Origin: Clostridia bacterium
Lineage (GTDB): Bacteria > Bacillota > Clostridia > Christensenellales > DTU072
Reading direction: 5' to 3'
NCBI GenBank assembly: GCA_045535785.1
Contig: JAZSMH010000047.1
Coordinates: forward strand, 8,250-72,249
DNA: 64,000 nt
The number at the start of each line of letters is the position of its first letter. Position 1 is the stretch's first letter. The translations under genes and the position numbers were made by a program. The notes under the pieces are model-generated. The model was not told where the DNA came from. It worked only from the letters and a program-made list of their open reading frames with translations, and searched no databases. This document shows, piece by piece, positions 17,120-39,182 of this stretch.

Positions 17120-17197
<78 letters not shown>

Positions 17198-17205
17198 CGA
17201 GTTGT

Positions 17206-17282
17206 GGCGGCGTAGCTTAGTTGGTTAGAGCGGCCGGTTCATACCCGGCAGGTCGTTGGTTCGAATCTGACCGCCGCTACCA
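17206..17282 (+). tRNA. tRNA-Met (CAT, elongator-type)
   Basis: Cloverleaf GGCGGCG/CGCCGCT, anticodon loop TT-CAT-AC, CCA end; resembles the Bacillus elongator Met rather than Ile2. Confidence 0.9.
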
Positions 17283-17318
17283 CGAAATCCATAGATAATG
17301 CGACAATGTAAGTACCAA

Positions 17319-17393
17319 GGCCCCTTGGTCAAGCGGTTAAGACATCGCCCTTTCACGGCGGTAACATGGGTTCGATTCCCGTAGGGGTCACCA
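17319..17393 (+). tRNA. tRNA-Glu (TTC)
   Basis: Cloverleaf, CT-TTC-AC anticodon loop, CCA end. Confidence 0.95.
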
Positions 17394-17399
17394 AACAAT

Positions 17400-17475
17400 G
17401 GGAGCATAGCTCAGCTGGGAGAGCGCTTGCCTTACAAGCAAGATGTCATAGGTTCGAGTCCTATTGTTCCCACCA
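17400..17475 (+). tRNA. tRNA-Val (TAC), prophage integration site
   Basis: Cloverleaf, CT-TAC-AA anticodon loop, CCA end; 3' half duplicated at 25330. Confidence 0.95.
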
Positions 17476-30591: not shown

Positions 30592-33500
30592 TTTTTATCC
30601 ACCCCCAATTCACAGTCTAGTTTTTCAAGCTCTTTCGTTAATTCTTCAATTTTATCGGTGTAGTCTTCTTTGCGTGCAAGTTCTGTTTTTAGTGCGTCTT
30701 GTCTTGCGTAAGTATCGTTAAGATGTTTTTTCTTTTTTTCCAAAATTTCCGTTAATTTCCCTAAATAATTATCTATACGTGTAAGAATACCAAGTTGTGT
30801 ATCACCAAGTTCAACGTAATATTTTCCGTTTTTAATTAACCAAACAAAAGGCTTTTGCAAAGTCATATTGACGGGTGACAAAATATCAAACCCTTGATAG
30901 GAAGTAATCACGGTTTCTTTTGAATTAAGGACGTTATTTTTAAGCGTACCGAAGATTTCTTCGCGAAGCAGTTTTCTTTCGTCAGCGCTATATTCGCGAC
31001 GGTTATTTTTGTAGTATTCAATATCTAATTGACATTTTTTTATCACGTCTAGTTGGTTAGTGATGCTTGAAGGAAGCTCTAACAGTTGCTTTTGTATAAG
31101 CATGCGTTTTTCCACCGTTTTGCTCTGCAAAGACTGATATTTTGACAATTCGTTCGCCCTTTCCACCCTTTTTTTGATTAGTGGGTTGCCGATAGCAAGG
31201 GCTTTTACTTCAGCGTAGTTAAGGACGGTATTCTCTACGTCCGATCCGCTTCGTTCCGCTAAAGAACCCGAAAGTAATTTAGTAATAAATCTCTGTTTTG
31301 TTTCTAACAATTGCCAAGAATATGCGTCAAAACTTCCTTCGGTTACGTATCGATAGATATCGATTTTTGCATTATCGTTGCCTTGACGAAGGATACGTCC
31401 TTCCCGTTGCGTCATATCGGCAGGTCGCCAAGGTACGTCAAGGTGATGCATTGCAACCAGTTTATTTTGCACGTTCACCCCAAGCCCAAGTTTAAAAGTT
31501 GAGCCAATCAAAACGCGAACAATGCCGTTTCTCGTTTTTAAGAACAATTTTTCTCTCTCCGTTTCGGTATTTGCATCGTGTACGTAAGCGATTTTTTCTT
31601 TGGGTATCCCCATATTCACTAACAATTTTTTTACTTCATCATAGACGTTAAAACCGTTTTTTGGGACCGAAGTATCGCAAAAAATAAGTTGAACGCCACT
31701 TTTATAGTTTGTTTTTAAATAAATATCGAATACGTTTTCTACACATCTTGCCACTTTTGACTGATAACTAAATGGAATAGTATTGTCTATGAGTCTAATA
31801 TCTAGCGCTGCTTTTCTACCGTCCGTAGTGATCTTTAACATATTGTCTTTATGTCGCGGTACGTCACCACTTCTTATTCTTTCAGCACGAATAGATATTT
31901 CGTTAAGATACTTTTTTAAATCGTGACTTTTTGTTATGATAGCATCGCTATATCCATCGAATTTAGGTATATTAGCAGTTTCGTCTAGTTGGTGAAAATC
32001 TGCTATAGAAGATAACAGCGAAGTAAGCTCGGGCAGGTTGTGGAATTTTGAAAACCGCGTGACAAGACGATAGTTGCTCGTATCTACGTCAATTTCAAAT
32101 TCGGTTGCTTTTTCTGCGAACATACCTATCCAACTGTCAAAATTCTGCAAGTCTAGCATAGCGAGTTCATCGCTTTGTAAATATTGTTGCATAACGAAAA
32201 CGTCCGTTAAGGAATTAGTTATAGGCGTACCCGTTGCCATCACCACCCCACCACCGTTATTTTGTTCTTGAATAAGCCGTACTTTATTCAGCATATCGGT
32301 ACATTTTTTCGAGCCGTTTGCGCTTATACCGGGCATATTATCCATCTTTGTCTGCAAAGGTACGTTCTTGTAGTTATGCGCTTCGTCAATAAACAATCTC
32401 GTTATGCCGAGTTCGTCAAAATATATAGAGTCGTACACTTCGTCAAGTACCGTGGACAGATTACTAAGTGCTTTTTCCACCGCCGTCAATCTACTTTTTA
32501 GTTGATAAGTGGCCTTATTTTGTTTAGTAACTATTCTTTGTATAAACTCTTTATCTTTTTGTAGTTGTCTGATAAAGAATTGCCTTGATAGGGGAATAAG
32601 TTCAAAACAACTGTACGCCATTATGATACCGTCATAATCTTCGTCGCGTATCTTTTCAAGAACTTTCATTCTATTAGTCGGCGCAAAATTCTTTGGTTCT
32701 ACACAAAGTAATTTTGCATTAGGATACATGGTAAGAAAGATATTTTTCCATTGTTCTACGATATTATTAGGCACTACGTAGAGATTTTTTTGGGATAAAC
32801 CCATACGTTTTAGTTCCATACCGCTAGCAATCATAACGTACGTCTTGCCACTTCCTACTTCATGCGCAAGCAACGTATTCGGCGAAAAGAGTATCCTTGC
32901 CACTGCATTTTTTTGATAAGGATATAGCGTTACGTTAGAAGAAAGGGTAGGAAAAGTTAGGAATGAGCCGTCAAAAATACGTCTACGGACGCATCCAAAA
33001 TTGTTTTCATATATAATTTCTAGCCGTTCTTTTCGTTTTTCGTCTTTCCAAACCCATTTTTGAAATTCCGCAATCAATTTTTTTTGTTTTTCGAGTGCAA
33101 GGAAAGTTTCCGCTTGATTTAATATTTTTTTATGATATGCGTTGTCGGTGATTACGATATTTTTTTGGTTGAGCGTCTTTTCTAGAATTCGTAATGCGCC
33201 CATTCTCGAAGTACCGTACGTACTGTTTGACGTTACGGTGTTAGATAGAAAGTAATCCCGTTTTAGTGGAATTTCCCAAGTTCCCGTTATTTCATCGTGC
33301 AACGTACGTTGATGACTGCTATAACGGTCCGACGGTAAGTTAAAGAGATATAAAATAAAGTCGTCGATAACGTCTGTAGGCACCCAAGGTGAACCTAGCG
33401 TGATAAAAATATCTTTCGTTGCCACCGCGCTAGGCAAGACTTTTTTTATGGCTTTTAGATTGTCGCGAAAATACCCGTTGTAGATTTTGTTTGCTTCTTC

Positions 33501-34013
33501 CGCTTTCTTCCACTTTTGCATTAAATTTCCCGAGAGATATTCTTCCGCCGTTTCCCATCCCTTATAAAAACATTCACCCCAAGTTTGTGGATTTTGATAA
33601 ATAGCCCCTTTTAACGCGCAAATAACCGTTTTGCAATCTTCCCCTGTGATAGCAGATATATATTCTATATCCACGCACCCAATGGTAGATAGTGACGTAA
33701 CTAGTGCATCGGGAATACTATCTACGTGTACGTCTTGCGCGCGAATATCGGTAAAGAATGCGTTTTCATAATCTAACGGTAGATCCATAGAAGTAGCTTC
33801 AGATATGAGTTTTTCTAATTTTTGCTCTTTTTCTTTTTTCCGTTTCACCTTTATTTCTTTTTGTAAGATGACTTTTTTGTGCGTTTTTGAGAGGCAATCG
33901 GCAATTTTCGTCAATTCATCAATTGATAGACGATTGTTTTTTTCATTTATAATTAAATTTGCAATATGCTCCAATGCGTCAGCGAGATCGTCAATTAATA
34001 TGAATTCGTTCAT
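30588..34013 (-). CDS. SF2 (SNF2-like) helicase of the DarB / methylase-helicase type, without a methylase domain
   Basis: LYPYQ, AHEVGSGKT, IDEAH, ATGTP, LGVNVQ, QREGRILRQGN; no methyltransferase motifs seen. Confidence 0.85.
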   Translation of the reverse strand: MNEFILIDDLADALEHIANLIINEKNNRLSIDELTKIADCLSKTHKKVILQKEIKVKRKKEKEQKLEKLISEATSMDLPLDYENAFFTDIRAQDVHVDSIPDALVTSLSTIGCVDIEYISAITGEDCKTVICALKGAIYQNPQTWGECFYKGWETAEEYLSGNLMQKWKKAEEANKIYNGYFRDNLKAIKKVLPSAVATKDIFITLGSPWVPTDVIDDFILYLFNLPSDRYSSHQRTLHDEITGTWEIPLKRDYFLSNTVTSNSTYGTSRMGALRILEKTLNQKNIVITDNAYHKKILNQAETFLALEKQKKLIAEFQKWVWKDEKRKERLEIIYENNFGCVRRRIFDGSFLTFPTLSSNVTLYPYQKNAVARILFSPNTLLAHEVGSGKTYVMIASGMELKRMGLSQKNLYVVPNNIVEQWKNIFLTMYPNAKLLCVEPKNFAPTNRMKVLEKIRDEDYDGIIMAYSCFELIPLSRQFFIRQLQKDKEFIQRIVTKQNKATYQLKSRLTAVEKALSNLSTVLDEVYDSIYFDELGITRLFIDEAHNYKNVPLQTKMDNMPGISANGSKKCTDMLNKVRLIQEQNNGGGVVMATGTPITNSLTDVFVMQQYLQSDELAMLDLQNFDSWIGMFAEKATEFEIDVDTSNYRLVTRFSKFHNLPELTSLLSSIADFHQLDETANIPKFDGYSDAIITKSHDLKKYLNEISIRAERIRSGDVPRHKDNMLKITTDGRKAALDIRLIDNTIPFSYQSKVARCVENVFDIYLKTNYKSGVQLIFCDTSVPKNGFNVYDEVKKLLVNMGIPKEKIAYVHDANTETEREKLFLKTRNGIVRVLIGSTFKLGLGVNVQNKLVAMHHLDVPWRPADMTQREGRILRQGNDNAKIDIYRYVTEGSFDAYSWQLLETKQRFITKLLSGSLAERSGSDVENTVLNYAEVKALAIGNPLIKKRVERANELSKYQSLQSKTVEKRMLIQKQLLELPSSITNQLDVIKKCQLDIEYYKNNRREYSADERKLLREEIFGTLKNNVLNSKETVITSYQGFDILSPVNMTLQKPFVWLIKNGKYYVELGDTQLGILTRIDNYLGKLTEILEKKKKHLNDTYARQDALKTELARKEDYTDKIEELTKELEKLDCELGVDKK

Positions 34014-34213
34014 ATCTATAAAAAATCTACCTTTATTTTTTTCTTATTGTGAATGTAGTATAGCAAAGTCAATGGAATGTTTTTGGTACACGAAAAATTA
34101 TCTTAACGGTGGCGCATTAATATCTTGATAACTATCTCTTTTTATGGTACAATTTATATGGATTTAACGAAATTATCAACGTAGAAAATAAAAGTTTTTT
34201 TGGGAGACAGAAT

Positions 34214-35344
34214 ATGATATATAAGAATTTTTTGGGTAAATCACTTTCCGCACTAGGTATGGGCTGTATGCGTCTACCACTTATAGATGGCAAGCACGAT
34301 AATATCGACGTTGATACCGTTAGTCAAATGGTAGAGTACGCTATTAATAAAGGCGTCAATTACTTCGACACCGCGTGGGGTTATCACGACGGACAGTCGG
34401 AGAGAGTTATAGGTAAAGTGTTAAAAAAATACCCTAGAGAAAGTTTTTATTTAGCAAGCAAATTCCCCGGCTACGACCTAAACAATATAACGAGAGTAGA
34501 AGAAATCTTTGAAGAACAACTAGAACGTTGTCAAGTGGAATATTTCGATTTTTATATGTTCCACAACGTATGCGAAACCAACGTTGATTACTATCTAGAT
34601 CCTAAGTACGGCATTTTTGACTACCTTATCGAGCAAAAGAAAAACGGTAGAATTAAGCATTTAGGTTTTTCTACGCACGCATCACAACAGAACTTTTTAC
34701 GCTTTTTAGACGCATACGGTGAGCATATGGAATTTTGCCAAGTACAACTCAATTGGATAGATTGGAAAATGCAGAATGCAAAGGCAAAAGTAGAAGAACT
34801 CAACAAGCGCAATATCCCCGTTTGGGTTATGGAGCCCGTCCGCGGTGGCAAGCTCGCTACGCTAGAAGATAAATATTTAGACCAACTAAAAACTTTGCGT
34901 CCAGTTAGCGCGGTAGAATGGGCGTTTAGATATCTACAAAGCATACAAGGCGTGACGGTAACGCTATCGGGTATGTCGAATATGGCGCAATTACAAGACA
35001 ATATTGCGATTTTTGAACAAGAAAAACCCCTTAATAGTGAAGAACTAGCCAAATTATACGACGTCGCTAACCAAATTACCTCCGTAGGCACGTTGCCGTG
35101 CACTTCTTGTCGCTACTGCACCACCGACTGCCCTATGGAATTAGATATTCCTAAAATAATAGAACTCTACAACGAGCACGTATACACGGGCGGTGGCTTC
35201 CTTGCACCTATGGCTATCGGCGCGATGCCCGAAAACAAACGTCCTTCCGCGTGCATAGGTTGTCAACAATGCGAATCGGTTTGCCCGCAAAATATAAAAA
35301 TTAGCGAAATGATGACCGATTTTACGTCAAGGTTAAAAGACTAA
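34214..35344 (+). CDS. Aldo/keto reductase with C-terminal Fe-S domain
   Basis: LGMGCMRLP, YFDTAWGY, MEPVRGG, CTSCRYC...CIGCQQCESVCP. Confidence 0.92.
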   Translation: MIYKNFLGKSLSALGMGCMRLPLIDGKHDNIDVDTVSQMVEYAINKGVNYFDTAWGYHDGQSERVIGKVLKKYPRESFYLASKFPGYDLNNITRVEEIFEEQLERCQVEYFDFYMFHNVCETNVDYYLDPKYGIFDYLIEQKKNGRIKHLGFSTHASQQNFLRFLDAYGEHMEFCQVQLNWIDWKMQNAKAKVEELNKRNIPVWVMEPVRGGKLATLEDKYLDQLKTLRPVSAVEWAFRYLQSIQGVTVTLSGMSNMAQLQDNIAIFEQEKPLNSEELAKLYDVANQITSVGTLPCTSCRYCTTDCPMELDIPKIIELYNEHVYTGGGFLAPMAIGAMPENKRPSACIGCQQCESVCPQNIKISEMMTDFTSRLKD

Positions 35345-35766
35345 TGAGTAATTTAGAAAAAGCAAAACAAATATTATCGGACGGTGAATATACTTGCGTG
35401 CTAGCGAATGAAAAAATCACCCTTTCGACCAAAGAAAGGGGAGTAAAACCGCTAGTTAAGTGGCTAGAAAGTAGTTTAGATTTTCGCGATTTTTCTTCCG
35501 CTGACAAGGTGATAGGTAAAGGCGCCGCGTTCCTTTATTTATTACTCGGTATAAAATCAATTTACGCTTTCGTTATAAGCACCCCCGCACTAGAATTGTT
35601 GCGAGAACGTAACGTTTATGTAGAATATAGCCAAGAAGTAGACAATATTATCAACCGCCAAGGTACGGGAATTTGTCCTTTTGAAGAAGCGGTGCTACCA
35701 ATAACCGATGAAAAACTCGCCTACCAGCTAATCAAAGAAAAAATGCAAAATTTAGGCATAAAATAG
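35344..35766 (+). CDS. DUF1893 family protein
   Basis: RGVKPL, ADKVIGKGAA, IINR...CPFE. Confidence 0.82.
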   Translation: MSNLEKAKQILSDGEYTCVLANEKITLSTKERGVKPLVKWLESSLDFRDFSSADKVIGKGAAFLYLLLGIKSIYAFVISTPALELLRERNVYVEYSQEVDNIINRQGTGICPFEEAVLPITDEKLAYQLIKEKMQNLGIK

Positions 35767-35776
35767 GGGAACAATC

Positions 35777-36826
35777 ATGAAAAAAGAACGTAAGAAGAAT
35801 GGCGAAAAGAAAACTTTATCAGAAAATCAAAAGAAAGCCAAATTAGTCTTTCAGGTATTATTTTGGGTTTTCATTGCATACTCGATATTCTGCCTTTGTA
35901 GGTCGGGTTCAAGTCTAGTATCAATGACTTTGCAGAACCAAAAATGCCGTAACGTTGAATTAGGGCAAGCAAGGTACGAAGAGATACTTGCTTCGGGCGT
36001 GCAATCTAAATATTCGTATTATACCGAAGAAGAAATAGCACAGGACAGCGATTTAGAAGTTACCGCATTATACCATTTTCCCAACAAAACGGGCGAAAAG
36101 AAGAACTATATTCTCGTTGTTCCGGGCGGTGGATATTTTGAATGTAACGTAAACAAAGTTGCCTTTCCGTACGCAGCGAAAGCCAACGAAGCAGGGTACA
36201 CCGCTTTCGTACTAGGTTATAGATACGGCAGATACTCTTCCCGCCACGCACCGCTAGTTGATATTGCTAGAGCGATTAAATATATCACCGATAACGCGGA
36301 TAGTTTTAACGTTATTCCCACCGATTATATGATAGTAGGGTACTCCGCCGGTGGTAACCTTACGGGCTTATTTGCTTCCGAAGAATTAGGGTACAAGCAG
36401 TATGGTTTACCCAAGCCCTTAACCGTTTCTCTCGTTTATCCGTGGATCAATATCAATGACAAAATACAGGTTACGGGCAATTATTGGCGAGATATATATA
36501 GCCTTTGCGCAAGAGCAATCGGTAACTCCTTCTTTATTGGCAAAGGCCGCACTTTGCAAGATAAATTCGACATTTGTGTACAAAATCACGTTGACGACAA
36601 CTATCCCGCGGTATTCATGGTGCACGGTGACAAGGATTTCGTCGTACCACATCAATACAACGCCGAAGTTATGGAAGAAGCGTTAAGGACGCATAACGTC
36701 AAATATAAATACACTCTTTACAAAGGTCTAAATCACGGATTTGGGATAGGCGAAGGCACCGTTGCCGAGAATTGGGTTGCCGAATCTATAGAATTTTGGG
36801 AAAATTGCAAAAAAATAGCGAATTAA
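35777..36826 (+). CDS. Membrane-anchored alpha/beta hydrolase (esterase)
   Basis: N-terminal TM, VPGGGY, GYSAGG nucleophile elbow, HGDKD, HGFG. Confidence 0.85.
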   Translation: MKKERKKNGEKKTLSENQKKAKLVFQVLFWVFIAYSIFCLCRSGSSLVSMTLQNQKCRNVELGQARYEEILASGVQSKYSYYTEEEIAQDSDLEVTALYHFPNKTGEKKNYILVVPGGGYFECNVNKVAFPYAAKANEAGYTAFVLGYRYGRYSSRHAPLVDIARAIKYITDNADSFNVIPTDYMIVGYSAGGNLTGLFASEELGYKQYGLPKPLTVSLVYPWININDKIQVTGNYWRDIYSLCARAIGNSFFIGKGRTLQDKFDICVQNHVDDNYPAVFMVHGDKDFVVPHQYNAEVMEEALRTHNVKYKYTLYKGLNHGFGIGEGTVAENWVAESIEFWENCKKIAN

Positions 36827-36890
36827 TTTTTCCAAAGGTATTGACAATTTTGGATATTAATGTAAAAATAGTTATTAGATAAATATTTTA

Positions 36891-36950
36891 GGTATATGCT
36901 TATAAATTGGATAAGCGTTTCTACCAACCACCGTATAATGGTTGACTACC
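36891..36950 (+). promoter_or_regulatory. Purine (guanine-class) riboswitch aptamer
   Basis: P1 GGTA/TACC, P2 GCTTAT/ATAAGC, J2/3 GTTTCTAC, P3 CAACCA/TGGTTG with CCGTATAA loop, GAC with C at the specificity position; TTGACA promoter at 36841. Confidence 0.85.
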
Positions 36951-36983
36951 GATTTTTTAGACAATGGTAGTCAACTTTTTGTT
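36941..36983 (+). terminator. Riboswitch expression-platform terminator overlapping the aptamer
   Basis: GTTGACTACC (36941-36950) / GGTAGTCAAC (36966-36975) then TTTTTGTTT. Confidence 0.8.
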
Positions 36984-37082
36984 TATAAAAGAATAATTTT
37001 TATCTTTATTTCCGTCATACTTTTACCTTGCTTTTCGTATTATATACAATGCAAAAAATAAGGAGAGTGTAGACGAGTAAAA

Positions 37083-38816
37083 ATGAAAGGAAGTTTATAC
37101 AGTATGAAATTAATTATCGATAACGTAGAATACGTTGCAAAAATGGGACAATCTCTCTATGATATTGTCAAAGAAATGGGTTTGGTAAAAGGCAAATTAT
37201 CTACCGATCCTATCGCGGCGAAACTCGCAGGTAGAGTATTCACCCTTAACTATATTCCTTTGCGCGAAAAGGACGTTCAACCCGTTCGTTCTTCTATAAG
37301 GAAAGCGGTAGCCGCAGCTAACGGCATAGTACGTCTACTTACCTACAACGATCAAGCAGGACGCGAAACGTACGTAAGAACGGCACAATTCATTATTTTC
37401 CTTGCTATAGAAAGACTATGGCCGGAAGCACATGCAAAAATGAGCTGTACCGTAGGTTCGGGTATCTATTTCAAAGTTCAGAACGCACCCGATTTTAGCG
37501 CGGACAAGTTAAAAGAAGAGATAAATATTATTATCAAAGAAAACATCGTTCTTCACCGTAGCATCATGACTACCGAAGAAGCGATCGCTTACTATAAGAG
37601 CCAAGGTCTTGACGATAAGGCGCGTCTACTTGAATATAGACAAAAGAAGACCTTCAATATGTACAAAGACGGTGAATACGCAGATTACTTCTATGGTGAG
37701 CTTGCTCCCTCCACGTCTTACCTATACACGTGGGATATCATTCCTTCGCAAGACGGCTTTATCTTCATTTTGCCCAATATCAACAACCCCGACCAAGTAG
37801 CAGACTACAAAGAATCACCCAACTTCTTTAGCGTTTACAAAGAAGGCAAAGATTGGGGCGAGCTCATGGAATGCGAAACCGTTGCCGACCTTAACGAGTT
37901 GGTAGAGAATGGCAAAATTAGAGAACTTATTAGAGTTAACGAAGCGTTACACGAGAAGCGTTTTTCAGAGATCGCCAATATGATTTGCGAACGCGGTGCA
38001 AAAGCAGTTATGCTCGCAGGACCTAGTTCGTCAGGTAAAACCACTTCCGCTAACCGTCTAGCAACGCAATTAAGGGTGCACGGCAAGAAGCCTATTCTTA
38101 TGAGCCTTGACGATTACTACATAGACCGCGACCTTATCGAGCCCGGTCCCGATGGCAAAATCGACCTAGAACATATCAACACCATCGACACCGACCTATT
38201 TAGTAAACACCTAAACGCGCTCTTTAACGGTGAAGAAGTAGAATTACCTTACTTTAACTTTAAGAAGGGTAAGCGCGAATGGCAAGGACACAAACTCCGC
38301 CTTACCGAAAAGACGGTTATTATAGTAGAAGGCTTACACGGACTTAACCCCACCCTTCTACCCAAAGACATGGATAGCAATCTCGTGTTCAGACTATACG
38401 TTAGCCCCTTGCTCGCGCTTAATCTAGACGACCATAACAGAATTCATTCTAGTTACCTAAGACTACTTAGACGCGTAGTTAGAGACTTCGAGTCGCGCGG
38501 TGCTTCCGTACAACGCACGCTCTCAATGTGGGATTCGGTAAGAAGCGGAGAAGAGAAGTGGATATTCCCCTTCCAAGAGAATGCCGACGTCATCTTCAAT
38601 AGCTCTACCTTGTACGAGCTAGCTATTATCAAAAGACATATCTATCCTTTGTTAAAAGCAATAGAGCCGTCCGACGATTGCTACGACCAAGTACGCGCTA
38701 TGGTAAAAATCCTTAACTTCGTCCGTGAAGCAGACGTTGATAACGAAATTCCCCCAACGAGTATCGTCCGCGAATTTATCGGTGGCAATATGTTCTATCA
38801 CAAAGACGAAGAATAG
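37083..38816 (+). CDS. Nucleoside kinase (uridine kinase/PRK family) with ThrRS-like N-terminal region
   Basis: AGPSSSGKTT, SLDDYY, IVEGLHGLN, RLLRRVVRD; alternative start at 37104. Confidence 0.85.
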   Translation: MKGSLYSMKLIIDNVEYVAKMGQSLYDIVKEMGLVKGKLSTDPIAAKLAGRVFTLNYIPLREKDVQPVRSSIRKAVAAANGIVRLLTYNDQAGRETYVRTAQFIIFLAIERLWPEAHAKMSCTVGSGIYFKVQNAPDFSADKLKEEINIIIKENIVLHRSIMTTEEAIAYYKSQGLDDKARLLEYRQKKTFNMYKDGEYADYFYGELAPSTSYLYTWDIIPSQDGFIFILPNINNPDQVADYKESPNFFSVYKEGKDWGELMECETVADLNELVENGKIRELIRVNEALHEKRFSEIANMICERGAKAVMLAGPSSSGKTTSANRLATQLRVHGKKPILMSLDDYYIDRDLIEPGPDGKIDLEHINTIDTDLFSKHLNALFNGEEVELPYFNFKKGKREWQGHKLRLTEKTVIIVEGLHGLNPTLLPKDMDSNLVFRLYVSPLLALNLDDHNRIHSSYLRLLRRVVRDFESRGASVQRTLSMWDSVRSGEEKWIFPFQENADVIFNSSTLYELAIIKRHIYPLLKAIEPSDDCYDQVRAMVKILNFVREADVDNEIPPTSIVREFIGGNMFYHKDEE

Positions 38817-38972
38817 CGGGGAGCCCCCGTTGGCAGTTGGTCGGTTAAGTGTCGACCACTTAATAAATAAATAATGCGTGTTAAGTTTTATCTATCGAAT
38901 GTAGATAAGCCCGCTACGCGCGGTGCGGCAAGGAGTGTCCTTGCATGCAAGTTGCAGCGAGCCGCTGTGGCA
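38816..38972. repeat. Mosaic GC-rich repeat modules (A-C-B order)
   Basis: GCGGGGAGCCCCCG, GCGGCAAGGAGTGTCCTTGCATGCA and GCAGCGAGCCGCTGTGGCA, each exactly repeated at 50601-50681. Confidence 0.85.
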
Positions 38973-39023
38973 GTTAGTAAATTCAGTGTCGTACACCAAA
39001 TAAAGAGAAGTCGTAAATATATA

Positions 39024-39182
39024 TTATCCTCAACTTGCAATGCAATTGCAAACTTCACTTTGACGATAAGGAAAAACTTCACTATCGAAGATAACTTCAC
39101 TTGCTCGTTAGAGCAAACTTCACCTTATTATTTCGACGTTAAGTCGATAGGCGTAGCCAATTCATGACGATAGTCAATTCAT
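39024..39182 (-). repeat. 159-bp GTGAAGTT/ATGAATTG motif + hairpin array, copy 1
   Basis: Reverse complement of 50833-50991 with one mismatch. Confidence 0.92.

Follow-up and report, generated by a model that had tools for sequence, protein, structure and literature searches.

Guanine-I riboswitches are textbook OFF switches, and those of B. subtilis xpt-pbuX and yxjA/nupG turn off purine synthesis, uptake, and salvage genes. The B. subtilis pbuE (ydhL) adenine riboswitch has the same RF00167 fold and is a transcriptional ON switch that governs a purine efflux pump: the 5' arm of its terminator is the 3' side of P3/P1, the ligand-bound aptamer blocks the terminator, and control is probably kinetic. 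Three further groups with the same fold and C74, namely guanine-II (Paenibacillus PRT genes), 2'-dG-III, and 8-oxoguanine riboswitches, govern salvage or degradation genes and are ON switches by prediction or by experiment (PMC9295807, PMC10556655), and the overlap logic itself has been validated experimentally for pbuE-type and 8-oxoguanine switches (PMC10556655). A 2007 survey listed only glycine, adenine, and lysine riboswitches as ON switches, and our literature search found no paper joining 'guanine riboswitch' and 'uridine kinase'.

The locus described here lies within the window, i.e. the whole 64,000-nt stretch of Clostridia bacterium DNA that was analysed, and judging from its sequence it is likely a riboswitch of guanine-I type that acts at transcription as an ON switch for the gene of a 570-aa kinase. 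As in pbuE, the 5' arm of the terminator is formed by the 3' side of P3/P1, but position 74 is C instead of U, P1 has only 4 bp, and the regulated gene encodes a kinase (joined by a small membrane protein in some relatives) and not an efflux pump. The joining regions are identical to those of the B. subtilis guanine-I aptamers, which also have C74, and yxjA likewise combines U24 with G-C as the first P2 pair (PMC2018637), whereas the polarity is opposite and the gene association new. The features of the locus are as follows.

36841-36869, + strand: sigma-70-type promoter, TTGACA, 17-nt spacer, (TGn)AAAAAT; 10/12 consensus matches, TG before the -10
36891-36950, + strand: whole guanine-I type purine aptamer; RF00167, 54.3 bits; pairs validated, -13.4 kcal/mol
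36891-94/36947-50, + strand: P1, four pairs
36895-97, + strand: J1/2, UAU, canonical
36897, + strand: U24
36898-903/36911-16, + strand: P2, covaries in relatives
36904-10, + strand: L2, AAAUUGG
36917-24, + strand: J2/3, GUUUCUAC, canonical 8 nt
36925-30/36939-44, + strand: P3
36931-38, + strand: L3, CCGUAUAA, 8 nt
36945-46, + strand: J3/1, A73 C74, i.e. AC(U), canonical
36940-36984, + strand: whole intrinsic terminator, 11 pairs followed by U5GU3
36940-36950, + strand: terminator 5' arm, GGUUGACUACC, formed by the P3 3' strand, J3/1 with C74, and the P1 3' strand
36951-65, + strand: terminator loop, 15 nt
36966-36976, + strand: terminator 3' arm, GGUAGUCAACU
36976-84, + strand: U tract, TTTTTGTTT
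36985-37103, + strand: AT-rich spacer from terminator to start codon
37022-37050, + strand: weak promoter-like site within the spacer, 9/12 match
37087-94, + strand: ribosome-binding site, AAAGGAAG
37104-38816, + strand: kinase gene, 570 aa, ThrRS-N-like region and PRK/Udk-family P-loop kinase domain

The preliminary description had proposed a purine aptamer at this site, to be checked with RF00167, and the covariance model indeed matched 36870-36968 (+); its score of 54.3 bits exceeds the gathering score of 37, and E was 1.7e-6 over the entire window and 1e-8 when only a 400-nt region was scanned. The limits proposed for the aptamer coincide exactly with its outermost P1 pair (G18-C78), and the C74 (36946), the 8-nt L3, and the short P1 (GGUA/UACC) that had been pointed out are all present. 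For comparison we assembled two sets of loci: one retrieved by protein similarity and blind to the RNA, consisting of the window and 10 orthologous loci, and one of 46 metagenome loci whose retrieval pattern specified the aptamer's 3' half, such that uniformity in that half is partly by construction. All 10 kinase orthologues (69-83% identity), which were chosen by protein similarity alone, have an upstream RF00167 match of 37.1-60.4 bits. The guanine-I pocket is complete (U22, U47, U51, A52, the G46-C53 pair, and C74) and is common to 39 of 40 distinct cores, while the GG of L2 and the CC of L3, which would form the kissing loops, are retained in all relatives. P1 reads GGUA/UACC in all 40 distinct cores and, as it never varies, gives no covariation evidence for itself; most of P3 is similarly invariant and uninformative. 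In P2, four pairs show changes on both sides, 92.6% of alignment cells are paired versus 24-49% when the alignment is slid, and none of 500 shuffles reached the observed pairing or covariation score. We regard it as confirmed that the RNA at 36891-36950 is a genuine guanine-I type aptamer.

The preliminary description also held that the terminator 5' arm is the 3' strand of P3/P1, and this pairing (36940-50 with 36966-76) was borne out. Since the arm is made of aptamer strands, aptamer and terminator are mutually exclusive, as in the pbuE ON switch. The terminator hairpin has a folding energy of -15.7 kcal/mol (z = -4.45), and 0/200 shuffles fold as well; a simple terminator scan of the locus found none because its loop limit was 3-8 nt and the loop here is 15 nt. 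The pbuE-like wiring holds throughout both sets: a hairpin plus U tract using UGGUUGACUACC occurs in 11/11 loci of the protein-retrieved set, and the aptamer/terminator overlap in 46/46 metagenome loci. C74 pairs with G in every relative's terminator. In one of the orthologous loci (L038), A73 is changed to U with a compensating U to A change in the terminator 3' arm, and in another (L040) U71 is changed to C with a compensating A to G change; these paired substitutions are evidence for the terminator helix. The terminator state is the more stable of the two (-20.2 versus -13.4 kcal/mol for the aptamer state), while for transcripts ending at 36960-36965 the minimum-energy fold is the aptamer, which is displaced only once 36976 has been transcribed.

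These features suggest the following sequence of events. Transcription would start near 36876, and the three-way junction of 36891-36950 would be the most stable structure until the terminator 3' arm is made. If no ligand is bound, the 3' arm would invade the aptamer and capture the 3' sides of both P3 and P1 along with C74, the base that pairs with the ligand; the resulting 11-pair hairpin with its U tract would end transcription ahead of the gene. Bound guanine (or hypoxanthine) would lock the junction and the weak P1 of 4 bp, the terminator could not nucleate, and the polymerase would continue into the kinase gene. The decision would presumably be kinetic, as in pbuE, and the response in vivo would be ON.

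One could argue that this is an ordinary OFF switch, or a constitutive terminator beside a relic aptamer, such that purine does not induce the gene, as most guanine-I riboswitches are OFF switches and the terminator is far more stable than the aptamer. However, a separate antiterminator element is absent and aptamer strands form the 5' arm of the sole U-tract hairpin in 57/57 loci, which leaves ligand binding no route to favor termination. In a relic, moreover, one would hardly expect joining regions to stay intact and P2 to covary across 40 distinct cores. We therefore consider this explanation highly improbable. The identity of the ligand deserves similar scrutiny. U24 had been called unusual and, together with the 8-nt L3 and the short P1, read as a hint of a changed ligand; this did not hold, as position 24 is W (A or U) in the consensus of published guanine aptamers (PMC2018637) and A, U, or G within the present group, L3 is 6-7 nt in most relatives and varies from 6 to 8 nt among close ones, and J2/3 is canonical. 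In fact, the tightest natural guanine binders are marked by U24 together with a G-C pair at the start of P2 (PMC2018637). An adenine riboswitch was rejected since position 74 is C. Guanine-II and xanthine-II variants carry a one- or two-nucleotide insertion in J2-3 and 2'-dG-III aptamers deviate in all three joining regions and are linked to a purine nucleoside hydrolase (PMC9295807), while the 8-oxoguanine riboswitch has lost U47 and is associated with an 8-oxoguanine deaminase (PMC10556655). In contrast, the junctions here are canonical guanine-I: J2/3 has its 8 nt without insertion, which rules out guanine-II and xanthine-II membership as well as the 2'-dG classes; 2'-dG-III is further set aside by the canonical joining regions and the kinase gene, and the 8-oxoguanine class by the retained U47 and, again, the kinase gene. 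It might still be that the fold is kept and the natural ligand is another purine derivative, such as a nucleoside substrate of the kinase, in the manner of the 'snuggler' variants (2'-dG, xanthine, 8-oxoguanine). The atypical gene association, the ON logic common to 2'-dG-III and 8-oxoguanine variants, and the group-specific traits of an invariant 4-bp P1 and an A-G mismatch that often occupies the 54-72 pair would fit such a ligand. Yet all named guanine-I contacts (U22, U47, U51, C74) are kept, every published variant class has insertions, deletions, or substitutions in its joining regions, and U24 with the G-C pair occurs in high-affinity guanine aptamers. We judge such a ligand quite unlikely, and guanine (or hypoxanthine) is the probable one.

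The nature of the regulated enzyme is a separate issue. The kinase orthologues all begin MKL(I/L/K/N)ID, and an alternative in-frame ATG upstream at 37083 is the less likely start; the nearest database protein is also 570 aa. Residues of about 75-215 resemble the N-terminal region of ThrRS, and the C-terminal half consists of a P-loop domain of the PRK/Udk family (PRK Pfam domain, 55.2 bits versus a cut-off of 22) that retains the P-loop, catalytic Asp, and lid arginines. The same architecture has been described for the three-domain 'uridine kinase' of Thermotoga maritima and Treponema pallidum, which combines ThrRS-like and nucleoside-kinase domains (PMC10248530); no riboswitch is reported for that system, whereas the kinase here is riboswitch-linked. 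The switch could operate as proposed and the enzyme be a true uridine/cytidine kinase, in which case guanine would induce pyrimidine salvage and balance purine and pyrimidine pools. Among protein families, it matches uridine kinase models and structures best, and its relatives, a family with thousands of metagenomic members, are named 'uridine kinase' or 'nucleoside kinase' in their sources. However, the 'uridine-kinase-like' label of the preliminary description stands at the level of the fold only. The protein falls well below the Udk equivalog cut-offs (TIGR00235, 85.4 versus 220.3 bits; NF004018, 90.6 versus 180 bits), and throughout the long-form family the positions aligned with UCK2 Asp84, Tyr112, His117, and Arg176, which we take from the UCK2 and T. 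thermophilus structures to be base- and ribose-recognizing, are Glu, Phe, Gly, and Ala. Furthermore, a canonical udk of 203 aa already exists in the genome, adjoining tdk, and the T. maritima protein showed no uridine kinase activity, only ATPase activity with uridine present (PMC10248530). Overall, a true uridine/cytidine kinase seems unlikely.

A different function is suggested by the relatives. In 5 of the 10 genome loci and about 20 metagenome loci, a half-size YgjV-family protein is encoded between riboswitch and kinase, and in one locus (L043) a YgjV-like protein is fused in frame to the kinase. These proteins of roughly 80-95 aa match the second half of the YgjV model (PF10688; 24.3-29 bits versus 23.5) and have three helices in the predicted structure (pLDDT 74). 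SemiSWEET half-transporters were their top fold matches, but a relationship was rejected as the matches are non-significant (sequence profile, E = 1.6; fold, E about 1 and TM about 0.5); the partner family is YgjV, not PnuC or SWEET. The pairing of a 3-helix protein with a P-loop kinase is reminiscent of the PnuC-NadR 'import and phosphorylate' pairs and suggests uptake and trapping. Because many relatives co-transcribe the gene of this SemiSWEET-sized membrane protein with that of the kinase or fuse the two, the module would most likely import and phosphorylate ('trap') a nucleoside-like compound, and the free purine base could signal that nucleic-acid breakdown products are available. This reading rests on the relatives, as the window's own operon has no partner gene and no YgjV-family gene was found in its genome. 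We tentatively propose, as a possibility rather less likely than not, that the riboswitch group flags an import-and-trap module induced by purine and made up of the three-domain 'uridine kinase' family and its YgjV-like partner. On this view the kinase may act on purine nucleosides (guanosine, inosine, or deoxy forms) or a related derivative, and not on uridine. The purine-sensing ON switch, the half-transporter (fused or neighboring), and the absence of pyrimidine-reading residues from the pocket together yield a concrete and cheap substrate hypothesis and a first functional clue to an orphan kinase family; if the import-and-trap reading is true, a family occurring across Clostridia, Thermotoga, and spirochaetes would have its first assigned function. 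As for the RNA, ON wiring with an unaltered guanine pocket would indicate that polarity can be inverted with the aptamer untouched; if so, the canonical guanine-I aptamer joins the natural ON switches and supplies a natural guanine-inducible part besides pbuE.

The design recurs in many uncultured gut Clostridia. RF00167 matches once per genome, both in the window's own and in all 10 related ones; as the only purine riboswitch there, it would be the single RNA element through which these genomes read purine availability directly. Among distant kinase homologues (~40% identity), no riboswitch was found at E <= 1. The 10 orthologous loci have no flanking gene in common, and 24 genomes of the same genus contain neither the riboswitch nor a full-length orthologue; thus, the cassette is patchy, vertical inheritance with synteny was rejected, and the cassette is possibly mobile. 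PurE (PF00731) was not found in the window's genome or in 15 of the 24 same-genus genomes. Purine auxotrophy as the rationale of the switch was nonetheless ruled out as a general link, since PurE is present in 8 of 10 cassette-carrying genomes. No further Rfam family matched in the spacer that might have indicated a second regulatory RNA, while the promoter-like site at 37022-37050, being 3' of the terminator, could provide riboswitch-independent expression of the kinase.

An Rfam scan of the whole window returned a single purine riboswitch match, to RF00167 at 36870-36968 on the forward strand, which scored 54.3 bits (gathering score 37; E = 1e-8 when the local region was scanned alone). The preliminary description had proposed a guanine-type aptamer here, and the scan agrees with it; the aptamer details it listed were likewise all found in place. 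The features, all on the forward strand and in xpt numbering where nucleotides are named, are as follows.

End at 36869, forward: sigma-70-type promoter directly upstream of the aptamer (TTGACA, 17 nt, AAAAAT with TG before it)
36891-94 with 36947-50, forward: P1, G18-A21 paired with U75-C78
36895-97, forward: J1/2, U22 A23 U24
36898-903 with 36911-16, forward: P2, six pairs
Loop of P2, forward: L2, AAAUUGG
36917-24, forward: J2/3, GUUUCUAC
36925-30 with 36939-44, forward: P3, six pairs
Loop of P3, forward: L3, CCGUAUAA, 8 nt
36945-46, forward: J3/1, A73 C74
37104, forward: most likely start of the predicted kinase ORF, 570 aa, beginning MKLIID as in all orthologues

The segment at 36940-36950 (GGUUGACUACC), which comprises the 3' strand of P3, J3/1 including C74, and the 3' strand of P1, also pairs with 36966-36976 to form a terminator hairpin followed by TTTTTGTTT. 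The terminator 5' arm thus consists of aptamer strands, as had been claimed together with a pbuE-like ON wiring. The isolated hairpin has a folding energy of -15.7 kcal/mol (z = -4.45), and none of 200 shuffles folded equally well. It was not detected by a simple terminator scan, because the loop limit of that scan is 3-8 nt and the actual loop is 15 nt. For the full leader, the terminator state has -20.2 kcal/mol versus -13.4 for the three-way junction, while in the folding of growing transcripts the three-way junction is the minimum-energy fold of RNAs ending at 36960-36965 and is displaced only once the terminator 3' arm is complete, at 36976. Since the leader has no separate antiterminator, ligand binding can only counter termination, which makes this riboswitch a predicted ON switch that is necessarily co-transcriptional, like the adenine-responsive pbuE of Bacillus subtilis.

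Genome contigs were searched with the kinase protein as query and without use of the RNA, which identified, in Candidatus Stercoripulliclostridium and other Clostridia MAGs, 10 orthologous loci (69-83% identity); one further match was a homologue of 40% identity. An RF00167 match scoring 37-60 bits lies upstream in every one of the 10 orthologous loci. In their alignment, four P2 pairs show changes on both sides, and 92.6% of P2 cells are paired versus 24-49% with slid partners. Each leader in this protein-retrieved set has a hairpin and U tract consuming UGGUUGACUACC, and C74 is paired with G in all of the predicted terminators. Two orthologous loci have compensated changes, with A73 to U in the aptamer strand matched by U to A in the terminator 3' arm (L038) and U71 to C matched by A to G (L040). 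The overlapping terminator is also present in 46/46 additional loci from metagenome contigs; these were retrieved with an exact pattern for the aptamer 3' half, and the set is therefore biased in that half. Both sets combined contain 40 distinct aptamer cores. The P1 5' strand is GGUA in every one, although it lies outside the search pattern, and P1 has no contiguous pair past the four in 27. Because P1 is invariant, covariation provides no independent support for this helix.

With regard to the ligand, the element retains every position that contacts guanine in published work (U22, U47, U51, and C74) and has a J2/3 of the canonical eight nucleotides. Guanine-II and xanthine-II riboswitches have insertions in J2-3, 2'-dG-III has all three junctions changed, and U47 is lost in the 8-oxoG class (PMC9295807, PMC10556655), so the kept contact positions and eight-nucleotide J2/3 rule out these variant classes and leave guanine or hypoxanthine as the most likely predicted ligand. 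U24 had been flagged as unusual, which did not hold: 89 guanine aptamers have A or U at this position, with a P1 of 2 to 9 pairs (PMC2018637), and our 40 cores comprise 25 with U, 10 with A, and 5 with G. Among natural aptamers, the two that bind most tightly (B. subtilis yxjA and S. pyogenes xpt) have both U24 and a P2 starting G-C or G-U (PMC2018637), as does the window element.

Neither the aptamer nor the switching logic is new. ON wiring of the purine riboswitch fold is established for adenine (pbuE; PMC10556655) and predicted or shown for the guanine-II, 2'-dG-III, and 8-oxoG variants (PMC9295807, PMC10556655). Guanine-I switches are described as commonly lowering expression, and a 2007 survey named only glycine, adenine, and lysine as ON switches. 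No paper joining a guanine riboswitch to this kinase family was found in the partial literature searched, which is weak evidence; within that partial set, the guanine-I/ON combination, its regulon, and the functional hint are undescribed.

The window's genome and each of the 10 related genomes contain one RF00167 match, and the riboswitch and full-length kinase orthologue are both absent from 24 same-genus genomes. No flanking gene is common to the orthologous loci, which leaves riboswitch and kinase as the conserved unit, sometimes with a membrane protein between them. PurE (PF00731) was not found in the window's genome (assembly 96% complete) or in 15/24 same-genus genomes, which suggests that much of the genus is unable to make purines de novo. 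However, PurE is present in 8/10 cassette-carrying genomes, and therefore purine auxotrophy does not explain the design. Elsewhere in the window, 17120-17472 (forward strand) holds a cluster of four tRNA genes.

In the kinase, a PRK/Udk-family P-loop kinase domain covers residues about 300-510, and residues about 80-220 match the ThrRS N-terminal region, both in PDB 6vu9 (residues 63-205, E = 1.4e-6) and in ThrRS genes of relatives. The protein falls below uridine kinase equivalog cut-offs. In an alignment with human UCK2 and T. thermophilus Udk, its P-loop, catalytic Asp, and lid arginines are retained, and Glu, Phe, Gly, and Ala occupy the positions of Asp84, Tyr112, His117, and Arg176, the residues that read ribose and base in the published structures. 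The same replacements occur throughout the long-form family, in the riboswitch-linked clade and beyond. An ordinary 203-aa udk is also present in the window's genome, adjoining tdk and a psuG-like gene; this salvage cluster, outside the window on genome contig C48 (about 32200-35800), encodes thymidine kinase, the canonical uridine kinase, a pseudouridine-5'-phosphate glycosidase-like protein, and a PNP/UDP-family phosphorylase. By described architecture, the regulated kinase resembles the T. maritima "three-domain UK", a ThrRS-like region plus nucleoside-kinase domain, which in a published screen had no uridine kinase activity at full length or truncated and only ATPase activity with uridine present (PMC10248530). 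The kinase stop TAG is directly followed by a GC-rich stretch (CGGGGAGCCCCCG...; 38814-39170) in a genome otherwise of 39% GC, and the ORFs on both strands at 38874-39167 look spurious.

In 5/10 genome loci and about 20 metagenome loci, a 78-96-aa protein encoded between riboswitch and kinase aligns to the latter half of the YgjV family model (24-29 bits, cut-off 23.5). Its predicted structure has three helices (pLDDT 74), and its best sequence-profile and fold matches, both non-significant, are SemiSWEETs. At one related locus (L043, 1156-3222), an in-frame fusion places the YgjV-like three-helix protein at the kinase N-terminus in a 684-aa product, and the same arrangement occurs in proteins of 684 and 631 aa from the database. 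The fusion ties the functions of membrane protein and kinase together. The pair points to uptake and phosphorylation of one compound as its probable role. No YgjV-family gene was found in the window's genome, so the kinase is alone there.

In the two closest relatives (L036 3297-4061, L037 2377-3093), a conserved membrane protein (multi-pass, about 250 aa; MDVV/IKKW(L/F)IGDMG...) lies 3' of the kinase on the same strand, with no counterpart at that window position. At another locus (L046, about 905-1200), three tandem copies of an approximately 70-nt unit (GGAAAACTTTTTGGAAAAA..GTTTTCCCAAACCCTTTCAAAAACTTTC..), each with a strong hairpin, separate the riboswitch terminator from the membrane-protein gene. 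A second group of ON-wired guanine-type riboswitches with the same UGGUUGACUACC terminator overlap (metagenome loci L047, L052, L053, L056, L059, L061, L062, L065, L067, L068, L072, L075, L078, L080, L083, L087, and L089) lies directly upstream of a gene that takes the place of the kinase and encodes an FAD-dependent protein (at least 457 aa, with a PF21688 C-terminal domain), followed on several contigs by a TraX-family membrane protein.
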